A DNA stretch of 63,526 nt, filler included, from Globobulimina sp. (Eukaryota): the NCBI GenBank assembly GCA_003354225.1. It is 14 parts of 14 records of this genome, joined end to end, with 100 filler letters (N's around TTAATTAATTAA, not from the genome) between each part and the next. Parts side by side here need not be neighbours in the genome. Positions count along the whole stretch, not along the records: positions 31,827 to 36,270 come from PIVH01001238.1; 13 more parts are not named here. One strand, written 5' to 3'. The notes beneath the pieces were generated by a model, which saw nothing but the letters and a program-made list of their open reading frames with translations, was not told the origin of the DNA and did no database searches. Both the position numbers and the translations under genes were made by a program. Positions within the stretch are counted from its first letter, which is position 1; each line of letters opens with the position of its first letter. This document shows positions 4,451 to 37,063 of this stretch, piece after piece.

Positions 4451-4550
4451 NNNNNNNNNNNNNNNNNNNNNNNNNNNNNNNNNNNNNNNNNNNNTTAATT
4501 AATTAANNNNNNNNNNNNNNNNNNNNNNNNNNNNNNNNNNNNNNNNNNNN
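4451..4550. other. Artificial contig linker (44 N + TTAATTAATTAA + 44 N); first of 13
   Basis: Identical linkers at 8999-9098, 13545-13644, 18091-18190, 22637-22736, 27182-27281, 31727-31826, 36271-36370, 40815-40914, 45359-45458, 49902-50001, 54444-54543 and 58986-59085. TTAATTAATTAA gives stops in all six frames. Contig lengths never increase, running from 4450 to 4441. Confidence 0.99.
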
Positions 4551-4696: not shown

Positions 4697-7600
4697 TTAT
4701 GGGGATGGTGAGAAACGAACAGGCGGTTGACCTAAATTTGGCCGATTTGAACGGCGTGGTGTAATAAGTACAGGACCAGGATCAGGTTCAACGTCAATAG
4801 TAGTCCATTGGTCCTCAGGGTCATAATAGCGCTTTAAGCGGCGCGCGCTCCAAGTCTGACCATCAGACAAGCGATAAGTATAGCGACCCAAAACGTCAAC
4901 CACCTGGAGTGGTGCAGAAAACGGCGACCTGCCTTTACGCACATGCGGCAGTCGAACTAGAACGCGATCACCCTTTTTGAATCGACCCCTCGGATGGGTA
5001 GGTGATAACGAAGGCGCGGGAAGCACAGCGGCAGTTTCCGCAGCAGGCATGGCAGGGCGTAAAACCGGCTGGTAATTTAAGCGCATCGCACGACCAAAAA
5101 ATAATTCAGAGGGACTCTTGGTTCCAGGCAAAGCAGGCGTGGCGCGGAATTGAAACAGAAGTTCGCGGATACCCTCTTCCCAGGGCGTGCGAGCAGCTTC
5201 AAAAGCTTGGACTCCATGTTTCAATGTTCGATTGAAAACTTCCACAACAGCATTCTCTTGTGGATTATAGACAGCTGTGCGGAGGTGTCGAATGTCGCGT
5301 TCACTCAGAAAAGTAGTGAACTCATGGCTGACAAACTGGGGACCATTGTCACTGACCAGTTCAGCCGGATTGCCATAGCGAGCAAAAAGCTCAGAGAGCC
5401 AACGAATGATGCGAGCAGAGGTCGTGGTACCTGTAAGTAACACCTCTGGAAAACGCGAGTGGTGGTCAATAACCACGACCACATAATTTTGATGCATAGG
5501 CGCGACATCAAATGGACCAGATATATCAATCCCGATCCGTTGCCAAGGCTCAGTAGGTGGCGTGATGCGCGTAGCGGGCATAGCGGCAGGTGGCGCGGAC
5601 TTGGCACTTGCCTGACATGGGGCACAATGTCTGACCATGTGTTCCACATCTCTGTCCATACCAGGCCACCAAAACGTAAGGCGCATTTGACGCTTCATAC
5701 GCACGATTCCCGGGTGACCAGCATGTGCAAGTTGTAATAAATTTTTGCGAATTGAAGCTGGTACCACAATGCGATCGTCCTCTCTTGTCAAAAAACCATC
5801 TTCAAGAGAGATAGCATCACGAATACTAAAGTAGGGAAGTAGTTCCGCAGGGCAGGCGCGTTTAGAAGGCCACCCAGCACGCACATAATGAGCAAGCTTC
5901 TGTTGTAAAGCGTCTGATGCATGAGCATCACGAATAGCAGAAAGAGGTAAACCATGTGAAGTAACGCGTTTAATAATGAGCTCATCTGGCGTGTCCTTAA
6001 TAGCAAGATCAGTAGCTTTAAGCGACAAACGCGACAATGCATCAGCAACATGATTTTCAGAACCTTTTCGATACACTGGTGTATAATCGAAAATAGATAG
6101 ACGCTCAGACCAGCGAACATACTTGCTTGATTTGCGCTGATCTGTACAAGGAGTAGTAAGCAATTTTTGCAGAGAAGAATGATCCGTGCGCAAATAAAAA
6201 TGACGCCCAAGTAAATACTTTTCAAAGTATTCGCACGACCAAACGCCAGCTAAATATTCAGTTTCACCAACTGAATAATTGCGTTCTCTAGGTTGCAATG
6301 TATGTGACGCAAAAGCAATAGGCACTTCGCGGCCATTTTGTACTTGACTAAGTACAGCGCCAATCCCCACATCGGAGGCATCAGCAGATACATAAGTTTC
6401 GTCACAATTAGGGTCAAAAACGTAAACCCGAAGCTTGTCAGCGACCAAGCGTTTCAATGTATCAAAAGATTGCTGACATGATTTGTCCCAAACAAACCGC
6501 ACGTTTTTTCGCGTTAGCCTACGCAGTGGCTCAGTATGTGTAGCGAGATTGGCCAAAAAATCACCATAATAATTGACCATACCAAGAAAGCTAAGCACCT
6601 GTTTCTTAGTAGTAGGGCGCGGCGCGCTCACAATAGGCTCAATATTCTTTGGGTCTGGCTCAATGCCATCAGCAGAAATAGTATGACCTAAGAATGTAAT
6701 TTTGCTGCTGCCAAAAACACATTTAGCTAGATTAAGCCGAAAATCTTTCGCAGCCAAACGTTCCAGCACAGCACGTAAATTTTTATCATGCTCCTCTTTG
6801 TCCCGTCCGAAAACAACAATATCGTCTATATACGGGAGAGCACCTGTACAGCCTGCGAGAGTTTGCGCTATAAGACGCTGGCAAACGGCGGCAGAGTCCT
6901 TTAGACCCATAGGAAGTCTTTTATAGCGACGCAGACCTTGATGAGTAAGTGTGGCAGTTAAATCGCGACTTGATGCTGCAAGCAAAATACCGAAAAATGC
7001 CTTGAGCATATCAAGTTTAGAATAAACAGTCGCGCCTTTTAACTCCAAGAATAATTCCTTGATATTTGGCAGCGGATACCTGTCTGGTATGACAAACTGA
7101 TTAAGAGGTGACAAATCAGTGGTTATACGGTAAGTGCCATTTGGCTTAGGGACCGTAACCATCTGATGTTGCCATTCAGCTTTGTCCACAGGCTCCCAAA
7201 TATCATTTTCATCCAATATTTGCACTTCGCGCGCAACTGCATCGCGGCGAGCAAGCGGAACTGGGCGCATCTTTTTAGCAGAAGGCACCGCATTATCAGA
7301 AAGTTTAATAGTGTGCTCGTAGTCCGGAAAACAACCCATTTTTTCCGACAACAACACTGGAAATTCTTCAGAAATGAGACGCTCGTAATCAGTTTTGACC
7401 AGTTTAATCTCAGGCGCTGCGGAGCTGTAGGAAAGCAATTGCATAGGCACTATGAGATTCTTACCTATCACTGGCGAGCACTGGTCATTTGTAACATAAA
7501 TCCTGACATGTTGAGAGCGGCCTCTAATGGTAACTTTAGCACTGAAATGGCCTAGGATACCGGAAATAGGCGAACCATCAAAATTACACAATGGTTCCCT

Positions 7601-9504: not shown

Positions 9505-10816
9505 ATGTCACTCCACACCAAACTGTTTGATATAGATTTTTTGCACTCAGTCAACAAAACATATGACACACCATGATTACATATTCACAGGAATTAATAG
9601 AATATGCAATAAAACAATACCAAAACGCTTTTGGATCGCATATAAAATATGCAATACATTACGCAGTAAAAGCAAATTCTAATTTATCCATTTTATCCAT
9701 CATTAAAAACTTAGGATGCGGATTTGACATTGTATCCATTGGAGAATTACAAAGATGTTTAGAAATTGGTGCTGATCCTGCAAAAATAATATTTTCTGGT
9801 GTTGGTAAAACAGATAAGGAAATAAAACAAGCTCTTGCTGCAAATATAGGATGTTTCAATTGTGAATCGATTGAGGAAATATTTATAATCAATGAATTTG
9901 CCGCATCAATGGATAAAATTGCAAAGATTGGACTGCGTATAAATCCAGATATTAATCCTCAAACTCATCCATATATTGCTACCGGTTTAGCTCACAATAA
10001 ATTCGGTGTTTCAATGACGGAAACATTACAAATATTAAAATTTTATAAAAACAAACAGTTAACAAATATAAATATAATTGGTTTAGGATTTCATATTGGA
10101 TCTCAATTAATGGATATTTCACCAATTTTGCAATCCATCCAATCCATAATACCATTGATTGATAAATTTAATCAGGTTTCAAAAGTACAGCATATTGATA
10201 TTGGTGGTGGTTTAGGAATAAATTATAATATGATACCATTCAAAGCATTAAACAATAATTATAATACCAATCAGGATCAGGCCAATATTGATAAATCATT
10301 AAATAAATATGAATTATATCAGCGATTTAATGAGCATTTATTTAAACCGATTTATAGTTTGCTGAATGGCGTTAAAATGCAACTAAATAAATATAAACAT
10401 TTAACTATTTTATGTGAACCAGGAAGAAGTATCGTTGGTTATGCGGGGATTTTATTGTCGAAAGTATTGTTTGCTGAAAAAAGGGATTTTCTAATTATTG
10501 ATGCATCGATGTGTGAGCTTATCCGCCCGGCATTGTACGGAGCTAAACATCCCATTATTTTGCTCAAAGAAAATGCAGATAATAAGGAATTGAGTGAGTT
10601 AACAATGAGGAATGTTGACATTGTCGGTCCAGTCTGTGAAACTGGTGATTTTTTGGGCAAACAAAGAGAAATATTTAATGTGAATAGAAATGATTTAATG
10701 TGTATTTGTCATTGTGGAGCATATGGATTTTCAATGAAATTAGTATAATAAAACCAAGACAAAGTGTTGCTTCTTTATATAATGATGAAAAACAATTGTT
10801 ACAAAGTAGACTGTAA
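9505..10816 (+). CDS. lysA: Diaminopimelate decarboxylase, bacterial type; disrupted as assembled (1-nt frameshift at ~9573, apparent internal deletion at ~10735)
   Basis: YAVKANSN (PLP lysine), GFDIVSIGEL, KIIFSGVGK, THPYIATG..NKFG, HIGSQ, DIGGG, EPGRS, LIRPALY, VGPVCETGD, GAYGFSM. The N-terminus (MSLHTK..TYDTP) and C-terminus (EISIIKPRQ..QSRL) lie in other frames. Confidence 0.88.
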
Positions 10817-31498: not shown

Positions 31499-32150
31499 TA
31501 TGTTGAGTGTAATGACATGCTTTGTCCATGACTATTGACCATTGACTAATGGCTGTTATGTTAAAAACAAATTATGAAAGATTGTTATTGACCTAGCTTT
31601 TTAAATTTTAATGTTAGATCCGTAAGTTTCCATGATCACAGTTTTCAAAAACAAGAGCAAACAACATCGGAACACCTAATAGAGTTTTCCTATTTGACCT
31701 TGATTTTGCTCATGATCAACTTTTTTNNNNNNNNNNNNNNNNNNNNNNNNNNNNNNNNNNNNNNNNNNNNTTAATTAATTAANNNNNNNNNNNNNNNNNN
31801 NNNNNNNNNNNNNNNNNNNNNNNNNNGATGACAGATATGATTCACTATGTACACAGACCTCGTGTCCCAGAAAATGTTTTCAACATTGAGAGACTGTCGA
31901 AAAATCTCCCTAAACACAATGACAGATACTATTTACTAGTCACACATAGCTCAAATAGTTTTCAGTCTGTGTTTCATTGAAGTTATGTAGCGACTATCGT
32001 TATGTTGTGATATTTTATATTCCTTTCATATCATTTTATTTATTTTATTCCAAACGAATTTAAAGTTGGCCATATCATTCTTTTAGTTCCAGCTGTTTCA
32101 CAAATTGCTGTGGTATTGTTTTTTCACTATATTTTAAAGGAGAGAAAACA

Positions 32151-32549
32151 ATGCAAAGGACGCCTTCCAGAAAAAAGCCCTGCCGTATATGTAGAAAATG
32201 GTTTGTTCCTCATCCTCGACAAAAAGACCGGCAAAAAACCTGCGGAGATCCGGAATGCCAAAGAACGTGGCACAAGAAAAAATGCTCGGAATGGAACAGG
32301 AAGAACCCGGATTATTTTAAAGAAAACTACCTGCAGAAGAAGCTTGATTCAATTGCAACCAGCACTCCCGAACCGCCCAAAACCCACCCCGAAGCTCTTA
32401 TCCGCAGCCGTTTTAAGACCGGACTACCCCTTTTGTTTGTTCAAGAGGTGATAAACATTCAACATGTTGTAATGATTGAATATCTGGCGCAACTACTCCA
32501 TGTGCGTTTTAAAGAGGTGATAAGGGCACAAGCTCCTGTTAATACATGA
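32151..32549 (+). CDS. Small basic Cys-rich (putative zinc-binding, nucleic-acid-binding) protein
   Basis: KKPCRICRKWFVPHPRQKDRQKTCGDPECQR (CxxC-16-Cx4C), with an AAGGAGAG RBS upstream. 132 aa. Confidence 0.8.
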   Translation: MQRTPSRKKPCRICRKWFVPHPRQKDRQKTCGDPECQRTWHKKKCSEWNRKNPDYFKENYLQKKLDSIATSTPEPPKTHPEALIRSRFKTGLPLLFVQEVINIQHVVMIEYLAQLLHVRFKEVIRAQAPVNT

Positions 32550-32592
32550 TATCTGAACGGACTACTCGTCTTTGGGTTTTTAAGAGGCGATA
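32420..32592 (+). repeat. Three degenerate direct repeats with a 69-bp period
   Basis: ACTAC at 32423/32492/32561 and AAGAGGYGATA at 32443/32512/32582. Confidence 0.8.
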
Positions 32593-32643
32593 GACATTGG
32601 ATCAGGATTTATGCTGATATGAGAAGAAAAAGGAGAGCCGATT

Positions 32644-33909
32644 ATGACCAACAAAAGGATTGTTAATCCGGACAGAAAGACACTGGAATCCATACAATGG
32701 CTTGAGCAATACAGCAAAGAGCACAATCTGCCGAGTAAAGAGACATCTGTAGTCGAAGATCTTAAGCAGGCTGCGGCTGAGTATCTTAAGTGGATCCCTT
32801 CAAAAGGATATACTCAGGGCACCCAGAACTGTTACAGGCAGAATCTGAATCAGTTTGTAGACTTTATCAGCCGCAGAAGGTTTTCATGGGATGAGATTTT
32901 TACATTAGAAACCGTAAATACGTTTATGAATGTTGCCGGTCACAGGCGGGCGTTTGGGATAAGGGGGCTTGCACGATATTTGTTTCTGCAGGGTAAGATA
33001 AAGCGTCCGATAGAAACAGAAACAAGAGGCTGTCTGCCCTGCATATATGAAGAGTATCTAAAATACTATGCAAAAACCCACAGGATTCACAGGGGAACGA
33101 TAACCAGCGCAAAAAGAGTGCTTCGATCATTTCATAGTTATCTTATAAAAAACAAAACCGCTCTTTCTGAATTAAACATAGAACGTGTAGATGCGTTTAT
33201 TGCCGAGTTCACATATGGTCTTAATCCGAAAACAGGCAATGGATATCGTTCTGCTTTTCGCGGGTTTTTGCGCTACCTGTATCATGAGAGGGAAGTGATA
33301 AAAAGAGACCTTGCGCCGCTTGTGACCGGGGTCCCCTGTTTTGGGCAAAGCAAACCGCCCGCGTTTTTAAGGCCGCATGAAATTGAAAGGCTGTTTGATG
33401 TCCAGGAAATCAGCACGGCATCGGGCCTGCGGTCATATGCGATGATTCAGCTTGCCTGGAGCCTGGGACTTCGGCCAAAAGAAGTAAGCCTGATCCGGCT
33501 GGATGACATCTCATTTAAAAAATATGAACTTTGTCTTACCGACAGGAAAAACAACACGCCTGTGGTGCTGCCTGTGCCGGAAGAAACGATCAAGGCTGTT
33601 GCTGCCTATATCATAGGAGCAAGGCCGTCAATAAAACACAGGCTGCTTTTTACAACGCTTAAGGCGCCTTACAGGCCCGTTACTTCCCAGGGAGTCAGCC
33701 GCTGCATTAAAGCCTGTATGCAGAAAGCCGGCCTTTCTTCAAAGGCTTACCACTTGCGGCATACCTATGCCCGGAGTCTTCTGGAGCAGGGGGCAACGAT
33801 CTTTGAAATAAAAGAGATGCTGGGCCATGATGAACTGCAGTCCTCCATGGCATATCTTGCTGTTGATACGAAATTAATGCGAAAGGTGCTTTTTAATGAA
33901 ACCGTTTGA
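32644..33909 (+). CDS. Tyrosine recombinase RitA-like
   Basis: GLRPKE, HLRHTYA, LGH and the catalytic Tyr in SSMAYL, plus extended N-terminal SAM-like regions. Confidence 0.92.
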   Translation: MTNKRIVNPDRKTLESIQWLEQYSKEHNLPSKETSVVEDLKQAAAEYLKWIPSKGYTQGTQNCYRQNLNQFVDFISRRRFSWDEIFTLETVNTFMNVAGHRRAFGIRGLARYLFLQGKIKRPIETETRGCLPCIYEEYLKYYAKTHRIHRGTITSAKRVLRSFHSYLIKNKTALSELNIERVDAFIAEFTYGLNPKTGNGYRSAFRGFLRYLYHEREVIKRDLAPLVTGVPCFGQSKPPAFLRPHEIERLFDVQEISTASGLRSYAMIQLAWSLGLRPKEVSLIRLDDISFKKYELCLTDRKNNTPVVLPVPEETIKAVAAYIIGARPSIKHRLLFTTLKAPYRPVTSQGVSRCIKACMQKAGLSSKAYHLRHTYARSLLEQGATIFEIKEMLGHDELQSSMAYLAVDTKLMRKVLFNETV

Positions 33910-34873
33910 GAGCTTTATGGCACAGGAACTGGAAGATTATATTCTGTTCCGCCAGAATACCGGCAGGGATATTAAAAGCATAAGGTCATCTCTTATTACT
34001 TTTGACAGATACCTTACGGATGCAAATGCAAAATCCCGCAGGCTGGAACCTTTGTTCTTTTTTGAGTTGAGGGAACGGCTCAAGCAGAATCCTCGAACAG
34101 TCAACGCGATCCTGTCCGGCCTGAGGAGTTTTTTTAAATTCCTGGTACGTAAAGGAAGCTATACACAAAATCCTCTGAAAGATATACCTCCTCTCCCTGA
34201 GAGTTATTTTATTCCTTTTGTGTTTTCTCCTGAGCATACCGACAGTCTTTTGGCAGAGGCCTGCCGGATGATACGAAAAACCGAAAGGTATTATGTAAAA
34301 GATCTTGCGGTATATACTGCCGTGGTACTCCTGGCCCGCTGCGGTTTGCGGATCTCAGAGCCTGTGAAGATGAAAATAACCCATTACAGGCCTGATGAAA
34401 AAACCATTTACATAGAAAAAACCAAATTTAAAAAAGACCGGCTGATACCTGTTCCGCTTACCGCTGCAGCCGTCCTTGAGAATTATATAAGCGTTCGAAA
34501 CACAATTCTTTCTGATGATCATTGTGAATATCTTCTCGCTGACGGCAGGGGGAACAGGTTAAACGGCCCCGGTGTCAGGCAGTTTTTTCATCAGGCTGTA
34601 AAAAACATAGGTCTGGACTGTCCTAAACTGATTGAAAAAGGCATGACCTTCGGCAATCCGACACCTCACAGCCTGAGGCATTCTTTTGCCATAAACACTT
34701 TAAAGCGGATAAAGGAGAGCGGAGGATCACCGCAGCAGGCGCTCCCTGTGCTTGCCGCTTATATGGGGCACAGAAAGTATAAGTACACAGGAGCGTATCT
34801 TAAAGTATCAGACGCAAAGGATGTGCAGGGCCTGATTAAATTTGCGGCTGCGCATAAAAAACATTCAAGATGA
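33896..34873 (+). CDS. Tyrosine recombinase RitB-like
   Basis: GLRISE, KTKFKKDRLIP, HSLRHSFA, LPVLAAYMGH..YTGAYL. Overlaps ritA by 14 bp. Confidence 0.92.
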   Translation: MKPFESFMAQELEDYILFRQNTGRDIKSIRSSLITFDRYLTDANAKSRRLEPLFFFELRERLKQNPRTVNAILSGLRSFFKFLVRKGSYTQNPLKDIPPLPESYFIPFVFSPEHTDSLLAEACRMIRKTERYYVKDLAVYTAVVLLARCGLRISEPVKMKITHYRPDEKTIYIEKTKFKKDRLIPVPLTAAAVLENYISVRNTILSDDHCEYLLADGRGNRLNGPGVRQFFHQAVKNIGLDCPKLIEKGMTFGNPTPHSLRHSFAINTLKRIKESGGSPQQALPVLAAYMGHRKYKYTGAYLKVSDAKDVQGLIKFAAAHKKHSR

Positions 34874-35889
34874 AATTATCCACATTTATAAAAGAGTTTT
34901 TTGTCAACTACCTGCCGCATATAAAAGGCGCAGGCGATTATACTGTCAAATCGTATAGGGAGACATTTAAGATCCTTCTTCCTTTTGCGGCAGAATACCA
35001 CAAGGTTAAAATCGAATCCCTTAAGCTGAAGCATCTCTCATCAGGTCTTGTCCTGGACTTTCTGCAGCATCTTGAAAAAGAGCGCAAAAATACCGCAAGG
35101 ACAAGAAACCAGCGGCTTGCGGCAATAAAGTCCTTTGCAAGGATGATACGGTTTATGTGCCCGGAAAAACAAAAAACAGCGGAAAGAATACTGAATATAC
35201 CCAAAAAACGGACCCAGAAAAAACTGATAGGTTTTTTTTATCAAGAAGAAATCATGGATATTTTTAAAACCGTTGATATTAAAAAAAAGGAAGGGTTCCG
35301 TGATTATACTATCCTGCACCTGCTTAACAACTCAGGTGCCAGGGCGGGTGAGGCAGCCTCGCTGACGGTTGACAGCCTTGATCCAAAAGAGCAAACGCTT
35401 GTCATACTCGGCAAAGGGGACCGGTACAGATTAATCAGACTGTGGCCAAAAACAGTACAGCTTGTGAACCTGTACATGGCTGATTACAGGATAGAACCTA
35501 AGCCCTTATATCGTGACCGGCTGTTTATTAATCAGCGGGGTGAAGGCTTTACCCGCCACGGGATATACCGCATCTGCAGAAAGTATATCAGAAAAGCGCT
35601 TCCGGCTAAACGTCTTAAAAACATAAATCCCGCGCACAGCTTTCGTCATTCGTGTGCCATGAACATGCTTGCGTCCGGGTACTCGATCTCTGACATCCGG
35701 AATCATCTTGGACACGACAACATACAGTCCACGATGATTTATCTTCAGATGGATCTTAGACATAAAAAAGAAGTGCAGAAGAAATTTATAGAACATACAC
35801 AGTCACTGTTAAAGCACGATGATAAAATAAAAGAGCTGATAGACTGGGAAAACAAAGAAGAGATAATGACCTGGCTGGACAGTTTGTAA
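34870..35889 (+). CDS. Tyrosine recombinase RitC-like
   Basis: TRNQRLAAIKSF, GARAGE, LGKGDRYR, HSFRHSCAM, LGH..STMIY and a C-terminal IMTWLDSL. ATGA overlap with ritB. Confidence 0.92.
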   Translation: MKLSTFIKEFFVNYLPHIKGAGDYTVKSYRETFKILLPFAAEYHKVKIESLKLKHLSSGLVLDFLQHLEKERKNTARTRNQRLAAIKSFARMIRFMCPEKQKTAERILNIPKKRTQKKLIGFFYQEEIMDIFKTVDIKKKEGFRDYTILHLLNNSGARAGEAASLTVDSLDPKEQTLVILGKGDRYRLIRLWPKTVQLVNLYMADYRIEPKPLYRDRLFINQRGEGFTRHGIYRICRKYIRKALPAKRLKNINPAHSFRHSCAMNMLASGYSISDIRNHLGHDNIQSTMIYLQMDLRHKKEVQKKFIEHTQSLLKHDDKIKELIDWENKEEIMTWLDSL

Positions 35890-36162
35890 AAATGCTGTAC
35901 ACCAACCAGGAACATGAAAAGAAGTACGCAGGAGGTCAAATTATTACGCTGTGTGTTTATCTGAAAATATTGGCGGTTTTGAGATATCTTGTTGATTTTA
36001 AAATCAAAAAGACGTTTTCAGGAGTGTCGTTGAGCTTTTGAATGTTTTTAGAGGGTTAGGTCTACTCGCAACATAATTGAAGTACAGTGTCATTTTTTAA
36101 CGCTTTTTTTCAAAAAATCCAGACACTAAATATGGGATTGTTCGTATATCCAATTTGTCCCC

Positions 36163-36270
36163 TTTATTGTCCCATACGTGTATTAAACGTAAATGACCAT
36201 AAATATATGTTTGGTGGAAGGTGTAACAAATACACCAACATGAGAAAAAAGAAAAAAACTGATGATACGA
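36163..36270 (+). pseudogene. Internal fragment resembling a bacterial CoA-substrate-specific enzyme activase / 2-hydroxyacyl-CoA dehydratase activator fusion
   Basis: YCPIRVLNVNDHKYMFGGRCNKYTN resembles the Cys-rich linker of these anaerobe proteins as I recall them. There is no upstream coding context, so it appears interrupted. Confidence 0.5.
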
Positions 36271-37063
36271 NNNNNNNNNNNNNNNNNNNNNNNNNNNNNN
36301 NNNNNNNNNNNNNNTTAATTAATTAANNNNNNNNNNNNNNNNNNNNNNNNNNNNNNNNNNNNNNNNNNNNTATTGTATGAACTGTAATATCAAAATGTGT
36401 GGAATAAAGCAAAAATGCTTATTAATTTTACACGTAATACGCGCCTTTGTTTTACGGGTTGGCCCCACTGTTTACGATGTTGAAAAAAAAGTGAGTATTC
36501 TAGGATGGGTAATAGGTCTCTTTTCTATTTGAACAGCTAAATGTATGACCTTCCTGGTTTGTTTAAAAAGTTTGCTTGCCGCTGCAACGGATGACTTAGC
36601 TTCACCAACACAAAGTACATCATAAAATGCAGAATTCGCAGTATAATTATTCATCGCATAATTATATTTTATATATCTGGTAACTATTAAAGTCACATTA
36701 TCATCACTTCTTTGTTTATCCAAAATGGTTGATAGAGAGGCCATGGATTTTTTATTTTACACACAACCTCATTTTGTTATATAAAACACAGATTCCACAC
36801 TCAAACTACCCAAAGCTCTCTTAACTTGTCGTAATGTCACTGGAAAAATGATGTGGATACAACACTTCTCCTTTTGGATCATTTAAACGTCCAATAACTA
36901 ATACACATTTCGCGTCATTTATTACGATCCTTTATTTTTGTGGCCTCTGACGCAAAGTTGTAAAGAAACGTTTGAAGCAGTTTCTGCAGGATGCCATGTC
37001 CATGATTTTCAACTGTTAAAGTTTTTTTTTGTGTACAAATTTCACTAAAGCTCACGTACAAGA

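Follow-up and report, generated by a model that had tools for sequence, protein, structure and literature searches.

Recombinase in trio (RIT) elements, reportedly described by Van Houdt in 2009 and 2012 and by Ricker in 2013, are the closest described relatives of the element analyzed here. The available parts of two sources describe RIT elements as widespread, give mobility data for none of them and leave the need for three recombinases unexplained (PMC3414803, PMC10214605). In the available text of PMC3414803, the RIT recombinases are stated to keep an "RH-Y" catalytic motif, and a table note in PMC10214605 gives a length of 34 bp for the inverted repeats of the archetype; RitA carries two sequential core-binding domains and RitC an extra C-terminal helix (PMC8138268). 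The present analysis concerns a RIT-type element within a stretch of 63,526 nucleotides (nt) of Globobulimina sp. DNA (GCA_003354225.1), hereafter the window. Unlike a classical RIT, this element harbors an extra module upstream of the recombinase genes, consisting of a gene for a small Cys-rich protein (the zinc protein), an array of three degenerate repeat units, and usually a gene for a winged-helix protein. Three classical RITs (those of pHG1, pBPHY02 and a Sphingobium plasmid) were found to have neither a small gene upstream nor a winged-helix gene, nor any repeats resembling the units, and a ritA-like gene follows the zinc-protein gene and array in 88 of the 89 homologous loci with enough sequence. 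An earlier interpretation made from the letters of the window alone (the sequence-only reading) had proposed that the small protein and the array form a separate module, and this linkage, together with the absence of the module from the three classical RITs, upholds that view. A search of the full-text literature, the coverage of which did not extend to Ricker 2013 and supplements, identified no paper in which a RIT is described as having a repeat array or an additional small gene upstream.

The array is very probably a selected cis-acting nucleic-acid element, and the evidence begins with its layout in the window. The repeats R1 (32420-32453), R2 (32489-32522) and R3 (32558-32592), all on the + strand, were located by the sequence-only reading, and both their coordinates and their letters proved correct when checked against the sequence. 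They lie within three longer units. Unit 1 (32413..32481, +) contains box A, ACTAC, at 32423-32427, box B, AAGAGGTGATA, at 32443-32453, and the spacer motif TTCAAC..TTGTAATGATTGAATAT; it is matched by nhmmer at E=1e-16 and its synonymous sites are fixed over 36 genes. Unit 2 (32482..32550, +; E=1.2e-11) has box A at 32492-32496 and box B at 32512-32522, and contains the stop codon of the gene at 32547-32549. Unit 3 (32551..32620, +; E=3.7e-05) is extragenic, with box A at 32561-32565 and box B, AAGAGGCGATA, at 32582-32592. The copies of box B (AAGAGGYGATA) start at 32443, 32512 and 32582 and so lie 69 and 70 apart, and the ACTAC boxes are 69 and 69 apart; the extra base of R3 is therefore positioned between its two boxes, and R3 does lie beyond the stop codon (TGA, 32547-32549) with a 1-nt insertion, as had been claimed. 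The combined pattern ACTAC-N12-16-AAGAGGYGAT occurs three times in the 63.5-kb window against 0.00 expected, with no match of any kind in 100 shuffles, and box B alone, allowing at most one mismatch, occurs five times in the whole window against 0.91 expected. Tandem Repeats Finder reported no array in the window because the units are too degenerate; a general repeat search of the window does recover the repeat family.

Comparison with homologues defined the anatomy of a unit as box A (CGACTACYC in non-coding copies), a variable core of 8–9 nt, a T-tract, box B (AAGAnGTGAT) and a type-specific spacer. The fifth base of box B is free, being G, A, T or C between loci and units. The three units represent three distinct types, each conserved in its own right: the type 1 spacer reads yTAAC..TGTAATCATT, the type 2 spacer reads CAA..TGTAAATACA or TGAATATAATG, and the type 3 spacer leads into GATCGACt-(~18 nt)-TAtaaT-RBS-ATG, where RBS denotes a ribosome-binding site. 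The spacers had been described as variable, a description that fails on comparison, since each spacer position is conserved between loci and the synonymous sites are fixed there as well. The heptamer ATATCTG noted ahead of R2 and R3 is present in the window and is not kept in the homologues. In a separate observation, box B of all three units in the clade of L036, L037 and L041 has C as its fifth base (AAGACGTGAT in each of the three), and the encoded protein has changed from QEVI to QDVI, which hints at a concerted change of the units within one locus.

Homologous loci were collected from genomes (43) and metagenomes (80), and a hidden Markov model (HMM) profile of the unit was run on 124 sequences; spacings and unit numbers were taken from the 116 loci in which the sequence covers the 3′ part of the gene plus a further 120 nt or more, and statistics were calculated on 38 representatives with less than 90% identity over the array. 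The unit HMM gave 364 matches in the 124 loci, all at the same place and all on the strand of the gene, with none on the opposite strand. At least three same-strand units are present in 111 of the 116 loci. The spacing is (69,70) in 87 loci, (69,69) in five and (69,71) in two; in a further 17, an interval of 139, 135 or 136 is followed by 69 (and 69 or 70). The DNA immediately 3′ of the array is rich in indels between loci, while the spacing of the array stays strict. The homologues thus carry a periodic array with its period kept and extragenic copies present. The sequence-only reading had named two findings that would count against it, namely homologous loci without the periodic boxes or an extragenic copy, and a similarity explained fully by the encoded peptide; neither was found, because the period, the extragenic copies and a constraint at the nucleotide level all hold.

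This constraint is seen in the synonymous sites of the gene. Relative synonymous-codon entropy over 36 aligned genes has a median of 0.81 at 42 well-conserved N-terminal codons and of 0.32 at 30 codons within the array (Mann-Whitney p=4e-8). At five array codons for Gln, CAA is used in every sequence that has Gln there (30–35 of 30–35), compared with CAA:CAG ratios of 20:16 at Q28 and 14:15 at Q62 outside the array; V97 is GTT and Y111 is TAT in 36 of 36 genes. Box B of unit 3 is preserved independently of frame, being untranslated in 12 of the 38 representatives and read in another frame, as SR(G/C)DR, in the other 26; in the homologue P0083 it is translated as QEVI. No other reading frame is open across the array, and it contains no overlapping open reading frame (ORF). 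One clade has slots for five units; its unit 2, inside the gene, keeps the peptide-coding sequence and has lost box B, and a complete set of the three types is found downstream at 69-bp spacing, with the last two or three units (units 4 and 5 among them) after the stop codon. This clade is a natural separation of functions. On these four independent lines, selection on the array acts at the nucleotide level and not only on the peptide, and the frozen synonymous sites and the frame-independent box B of unit 3 bear out the nucleic-acid-level conservation claimed earlier.

The same observations bear on the idea that the array is a decayed protein repeat, in which a 23-residue helix repeat would have left R3 as a functionless, frameshifted relic. 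The period of 69 nt corresponds to 23 codons, the peptides encoded by R1 and R2 resemble each other (GLPLxxVQEVI and AQLLxRRFQEV), and the C-terminal helices of the zinc protein are conserved even in the clade whose unit 2 is without box B. A mere relic is nevertheless very improbable: synonymous sites are frozen, box B of R3 is kept although untranslated or in another frame, units that lie entirely outside the gene retain both the boxes and the 69-bp spacing, and the frameshifting extra base is itself conserved (69 then 70 in 87 of the 116 loci).

Processing of the array into RNAs of ~69 nt, as had been suggested, would call for other features. RNAalifold on the 38 representatives predicted four pairs, none of them covarying, at -1.26 kcal/mol, and so no conserved fold, and Rfam returned no match for the array region. 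A small hairpin in the core of unit 3 is found in most representatives and is weak (mean z -1.0, below -1.5 in 11 of 38, and no hairpin in 6 of 38); it was not relied on. The alternation of ~35-nt boxes with ~35-nt intervals has a superficial likeness to a small-RNA array or to clustered regularly interspaced short palindromic repeats (CRISPR), and the features expected of such an array (near-identical repeats, locus-specific spacers, and a hairpin or known RNA family) were looked for and not found. The repeats here are degenerate. The intervals that separate the boxes are, position by position, conserved from locus to locus and are therefore not spacers in the CRISPR sense. A guide-like match of the variable cores to the crossover cores of the element, described below, was sought by eye in L006, L013 and the window, and none was found. 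The proposed processed RNAs are thus not supported, given the conserved "spacers" and the lack of a conserved fold, a covarying pair and an Rfam family, and among all the explanations considered here this one has the least chance of being correct. A further candidate, a Shine-Dalgarno (SD) mimic (GAGGTGATC within box B), was rejected because that box tolerates any of the four bases at its fifth position.

The last unit adjoins the start of the next gene, and its sequence suggests how the array might act. Under a fixed rule, it supplies the -35 of a promoter-like site, TCGACx-(16-19, mostly 18)-TAtaaT, in 33 of the 38 representatives; the same rule is satisfied by unit 1 in 7 of the 38 and by unit 2 in none, and an independent generic promoter scan of L007 recovered TCGACA-18-TATAAT with 11 of 12 matches. 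Repeated sites that overlap or adjoin a promoter-like site are accordingly present in those 33 representatives. In the window, unit 3 contains a -35-like TAGACA (32591-32596) and a weak -10 candidate, TGATAT (32615-32620), and the RBS (AAGGAGAG) and ATG of the first recombinase gene were read at 32630..32646 (+). The array is most readily understood, at somewhat less than even chances, as a phased protein-docking and operator array on DNA, a reading favored by the promoter-like site at its end, by the strictness of its spacing, by the missing RNA fold and by the link to lineage-specific accessory genes. An element-encoded protein would dock cooperatively on the phased sites and control the promoter that takes its -35 from the last unit, and it may also organize the recombination complex; the zinc-ribbon protein would be the first candidate for the binder and the winged-helix protein the second. 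We infer the binding of a protein to the array, the identity of that protein and the regulatory outcome from these features. The sequence-only reading had offered several functions for the array, of which an autoregulator with phased operators or an accessory site fits best because the last unit overlaps the promoter-like site, and processed RNAs find no support.

A second property of the last unit points toward RNA. The tail of unit 3 (GTGATCGACTYTT) is complementary to the SD/start region of the next gene, with a mean duplex energy of -10.6 kcal/mol (-4.9 kcal/mol when partners are shuffled); in 20 of 37 representatives, nothing else within 370 nt pairs better with that region. Over 481 positions of the pairing, 103 are G-U and 38 are A-C, so that G-U is tolerated, and a conserved TGA closes the ORF in 26 of the 38 representatives, at precisely the point where this anti-RBS sequence ends. 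By pairing with the translation start of the next gene, RBS included, the tail would silence read-through transcripts in many lineages. Unit 3 thus appears, on its sequence, to serve as a -35 and additionally, in many lineages, as an anti-RBS. Neither this double use, nor the distinctness of the three unit types, nor the winged-helix gene of most relatives had figured in the sequence-only reading.

These pairing data support the strongest of the competing explanations, in which the boxes are linear motifs in the zinc-gene/rit mRNA, recognized by the basic zinc-ribbon protein, the binding of which opens or stabilizes the fold-back between unit 3 and the RBS and so sets downstream translation. 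Translational control of mom by Com in phage Mu is a precedent for such a mechanism. The location of all units on the coding strand would also fit, and at one variable pair both sides have changed in L003 and L005; the same position is uncompensated in L045, L057, L085 and L112. No conserved structure or covariation extends across units 1–3, the fold-back is missing in 17 of the 37 representatives, including the window, and a strict spacing of 69/70 nt is hard to square with the recognition of single-stranded motifs. Moreover, transcripts from the promoter-like site would be without units 1–3. Altogether, an RNA-level role of this kind is unlikely, though less so than any of the other alternatives.

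Several points weigh against the docking and operator interpretation. The loci are not independent, and the 38 representatives, though below 90% identity, still have common ancestry. No recognized DNA-binding family is found among the proteins of the element, the zinc protein having neither a Pfam nor a fold match. The constraint covers almost the whole unit, spacers included, which goes beyond the needs of a simple operator. The copy in the window is among the 5 of 38 representatives that fail the promoter rule: the scan calls nothing there, and its -10 is poor. The anti-RBS pairing is absent from the window as well (duplex of -1.5 kcal/mol), and where the G-U-tolerant fold-back is present, it shows that many lineages read unit 3, at the least, as RNA too, in which case an RNA-level role for all boxes becomes possible. 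A period of 69/70 bp corresponds to 6.6 turns of relaxed B-DNA, placing neighboring sites off-face unless the DNA is wrapped or overwound, and known operator and iteron arrays have far shorter periods.

The position of the array relative to the ends of the element raises a further explanation. Five copies in one long-read metagenome-assembled genome (MAG) define a unit of 4434 bp and map its ends, and an end plan common to 34 loci, including the window, consists of a core of 6–8 bp directly repeated at the junctions and inverted 11-bp arms (TATGTTGYGAG/CTCRCAACATA). In the window, the left 8-bp direct repeat ATTGAAGT (31976..31983, +), a putative crossover core, is followed by the left terminal arm TATGTAGCGAC (31984..31994, +), which agrees with the reverse-complemented right arm in 9 of its 11 letters. 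The right terminal arm CTCGCAACATA (36065-36075, +) is followed by A plus TTGAAGT, which forms the right copy of the same 8-mer, ATTGAAGT, at 36076-36083. A second, direct copy of the arm motif, TTATGTTGTGA (32000-32010, +), is positioned at the left end, where it overlaps the -35 of the promoter-like site of the zinc-protein gene; L013, the element ends of which are at 5768-5800 and 10185-10205, also has this second copy. The arm sites are thus three in number, alongside three recombinases. The terminal arms are presumably recombinase core sites, and the joined ends would form a classical tyrosine-recombinase core site. Core sequences vary by element lineage (GGCAAG, TAGCAG, TTGGAG, CTATATT, TATCAGT, GAGCTC and others), and this variation suggests that target cores are lineage-specific.

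The array is located 430–640 bp from the left end, and hence from the joined-end core in an excised circle. It might accordingly be a recombination accessory site or internal enhancer, an architectural platform that aids the three recombinases in bringing the ends into synapsis, with the promoter overlap secondary. The accessory sequences of Xer sites, the IRS repeats of TnpI and the internal enhancer of Mu are parallels. A cis array of three distinct unit types with strictly conserved spacing agrees with such a role, and related multi-recombinase elements require small accessory proteins (Srap, GinD and TnpC), according to the available parts of PMC10214605 and PMC5385486. The array boxes are unrelated to the 11-bp terminal arms, however, and arm-type sites would be expected closer to the core. 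Classical RITs, which have no array of this kind, are functional or at any rate survive, and the accessible text of PMC3414803 and PMC10214605 offers no mobility data for any RIT. A role primarily in recombination is therefore rated as rather improbable, somewhat below the RNA-level alternative. Two resemblances to recombinase sites were considered and rejected: boxes A and B read as inverted half-sites of a recombinase core gave ~6/9 matches by eye and no likeness to the terminal arms, and the CAACAT of the unit 1 spacer was not equated with the CAACATA of the terminal arm because extragenic units have yTAAy there. In a more elaborate form of this idea, the last third of the gene would be the three-site docking platform of the very nucleic-acid-binding protein it encodes, each unit type recruiting one recombinase, so that an internal "enhancer" would assemble the RIT recombination machinery and tie this assembly to expression; the chance that this is correct is small, and if it were true, it would provide the first mechanistic handle on the need for a recombinase trio.

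The zinc protein, the first candidate for the binder under the docking and operator interpretation, is a basic Cys-rich protein of 132 amino acids (aa; CxxC..Cx4C..H..C) encoded at 32151..32549 (+), and the last third of its gene (codons ~89-132) coincides with array units 1 and 2. The gene is preceded by a promoter-like site, TTGTGA-18-TATCAT (32005-32034, +), which overlaps the second arm copy; the same arrangement is found in L002. The protein is universal in the family. It matches no Pfam or NCBIfam family and yielded nothing usable in PHROGs; the relatives form at least 399 clusters, none of which is named or has a Pfam domain, and the matches in the ESM Atlas were "hypothetical protein" clusters only. 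An AlphaFold2 (AF2) model has a mean predicted local distance difference test (pLDDT) score of 73, with a confident N-terminal half, disorder at residues 73-88 and C-terminal helices at 94-126. A Foldseek search of this model against pdb gave no row at E<=0.001, and the best Z of a VIA wide search was 3.4. A predicted complex of two copies of residues 86-132 scored 0.02, below the mark, a result that speaks neither for nor against self-association.

The second candidate is a protein of ~133 aa encoded between the array and ritA in 75 of the 89 loci that extend far enough downstream. Its similarities are those of a generic winged helix: HTH_36 matches at E=0.003, below the Pfam cut-off, a DnaD-like phrog matches at E=0.055, and the top Foldseek rows for its AF2 model (mean pLDDT 74) are the N-domains of RepA_N-type plasmid initiators (5kbj and 4pt7, E=0.02-0.04), with MarR, Crp and SmtB rows scoring alike. 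A PDB sequence search gave no match, and the relatives form at least 4014 clusters. The array is retained in 13 loci without the gene, namely the window, L068 and a near-identical set (L004, L010, L075, L079, L090, L091, L095 and L106-L109, alike over unit 3); the winged-helix protein is thus dispensable in cis. In the window, RitA has 35 extra N-terminal residues (32644-32748), the first 11 of which match the start of the winged-helix protein (gene 6463-6861 in L013), suggesting an in-frame internal deletion-fusion that kept the initiation region; on this sequence evidence, the copy in the window seems to have lost the winged-helix gene by internal deletion.

The winged-helix protein could instead be a replication initiator or loader for the excised circle, with the array serving as an iteron-like origin and copies without the gene using the protein in trans. 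The position of the gene directly after the array, its weak similarities to HTH_36, DnaD and RepA_N, and the retention of the array in the 13 loci that lack it all speak for this. Those similarities, however, are below significance and generic for winged helices. Known iterons are repeats of 17–22 bp at ~22-bp spacing, in helical phase and next to an AT-rich region; the units here are degenerate, ~60 nt long and of three types at a period of 69/70 bp, and are not the short, identical repeats in helical phase that such an origin would have. Neither an AT-rich unwinding element nor a helicase gene was seen in this element of only 4–5 genes. An origin is consequently improbable, being rated below the accessory site and above the recruitment of one recombinase by each unit type.

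The remainder of the element consists of three adjacent, co-oriented tyrosine recombinase genes with short overlaps, as in RITs. The RitA-like protein (421 aa; 32644..33909, +) has SAM-like core-binding matches at residues 53-80 and 136-215; the gene for the RitB-like protein (325 aa; 33896..34873, +) overlaps ritA by 14 bp; and that for the RitC-like protein (339 aa; 34870..35889, +) overlaps ritB by 4 bp, the protein having ~45 residues after its catalytic Tyr. All three match PF00589, with E values from 3e-21 to 3e-24, and NCBIfam gave sub-threshold Xer-type matches only. The motifs read by eye, at positions that we take to be those of R..HxxR..Y, are GLRPKE, YHLRH and MAYL in RitA, where the first His position is Tyr, GLRISE, HSLRH and GAYL in RitB, and GARAGE, HSFRH and MIYL in RitC. 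In tblastn searches, the RitA-like protein is ~25–29% identical to classical RitA, the trios of pHG1 and pBPHY02 giving 26–27% over 89–97% of the query, and its best plasmid match is the RIT-rich pHG1. In a side observation on that plasmid of Cupriavidus necator (L124, 1676-7778), a RIT trio immediately follows an incomplete second pair of recombinase genes, and an ISAe1 copy interrupts the ritC of the trio; this locus is an example of nested, decaying RITs.

The window itself is a chain of unrelated contigs of ~4.45 kb each, seemingly size-ordered, with 13 linkers of the type N/TTAATTAATTAA at ~4.5-kb intervals between positions 4451 and 59085. Since the linkers join unrelated contigs, the genes flanking 31827-36270 in the window are not genomic neighbors of the element, the whole of which, with short flanks, is contained in this one contig of 4444 bp (31827..36270, without strand assignment) between the linkers at 31727-31826 and 36271-36370. 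Outside the element, the left flank contains two 34-nt direct repeats of 76% identity (ATGACAGATA..ACTA..CACA), which are located 91 bp apart at 31828-31861 and 31919-31952 and could be a target-site feature. Among the homologues, L068 has two copies of the small gene plus array (1283-1738 and ~5490-5658) ~3.9 kb apart on a 5.7-kb contig, and its elements are tandem or adjacent. The hosts are mainly Desulfobacterota MAGs; copies are also found in MAGs labeled Halobacteriales, Hydrothermarchaeales (archaea), Pirellulales and Aminicenantes (L027, L040, L005 and L034), that of L027 on a 522-kb contig, and these labels reflect either wide transfer or binning errors on short contigs.

The lineage is very abundant in metagenomes of anoxic sediments, as the numbers of zinc-protein and winged-helix clusters attest. 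A compact element of 4.1–4.6 kb with clean ends, one or two accessory genes and a sharply bounded cis array supplies parts for reconstitution. The array is also a natural case of a strong second layer of constraint on a coding sequence, with synonymous sites frozen over ~45 codons, and gene annotation and dN/dS analyses would misread such an overprinted region.

Compared with described RITs, the element has the adjacent, overlapping trio, a RitA-like protein with two core-binding regions, a RitC-like protein with a C-terminal extension, catalytic motifs in all three proteins and terminal inverted repeats that bound the element, all of which fit the RIT assignment made by the sequence-only reading; it differs from the archetype in its arms, which are 11 bp around a 6–8-bp core and not 34 bp. 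A second comparison is with the small accessory proteins Srap (SE) and GinD (GInt), which are needed for attL x attR recombination, and with TnpC of Tn554 (available text of PMC10214605 and PMC5385486). Like these, the zinc protein is a small, family-less protein encoded beside recombinases, with a helical C-terminal part; unlike them, it has an N-terminal zinc ribbon and its gene is located upstream of the trio, theirs being downstream, and the accessible portions of the same sources describe no repeat array in those systems.

Fold-back inhibition of transposase translation occurs in IS10 and IS50. As in those elements, sequence upstream of an internal promoter-like site is complementary to the next RBS and start in 20 of 37 representatives, so that the silencing would affect read-through transcripts only; the complementarity here is a prediction from sequence, involves the tail of unit 3 only and is absent from the window. 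Operator and binding-site arrays, such as the TnpI sites of Tn4430 and Tn5401, plasmid iterons and the Mu operator and enhancer, consist of direct repeats at the promoter of their own operon. The array described here likewise consists of direct repeats at the promoter of the element's own genes, potentially bound by a protein of the element and combining autoregulation with an architectural role; it differs from them in its period of 69/70 bp in place of ~11–22 bp, in its three non-identical unit types, and in having two of the three units inside a coding sequence under dual constraint. What is new is thus a RIT-type element with an added accessory module, the cis array of which is overprinted on coding sequence.

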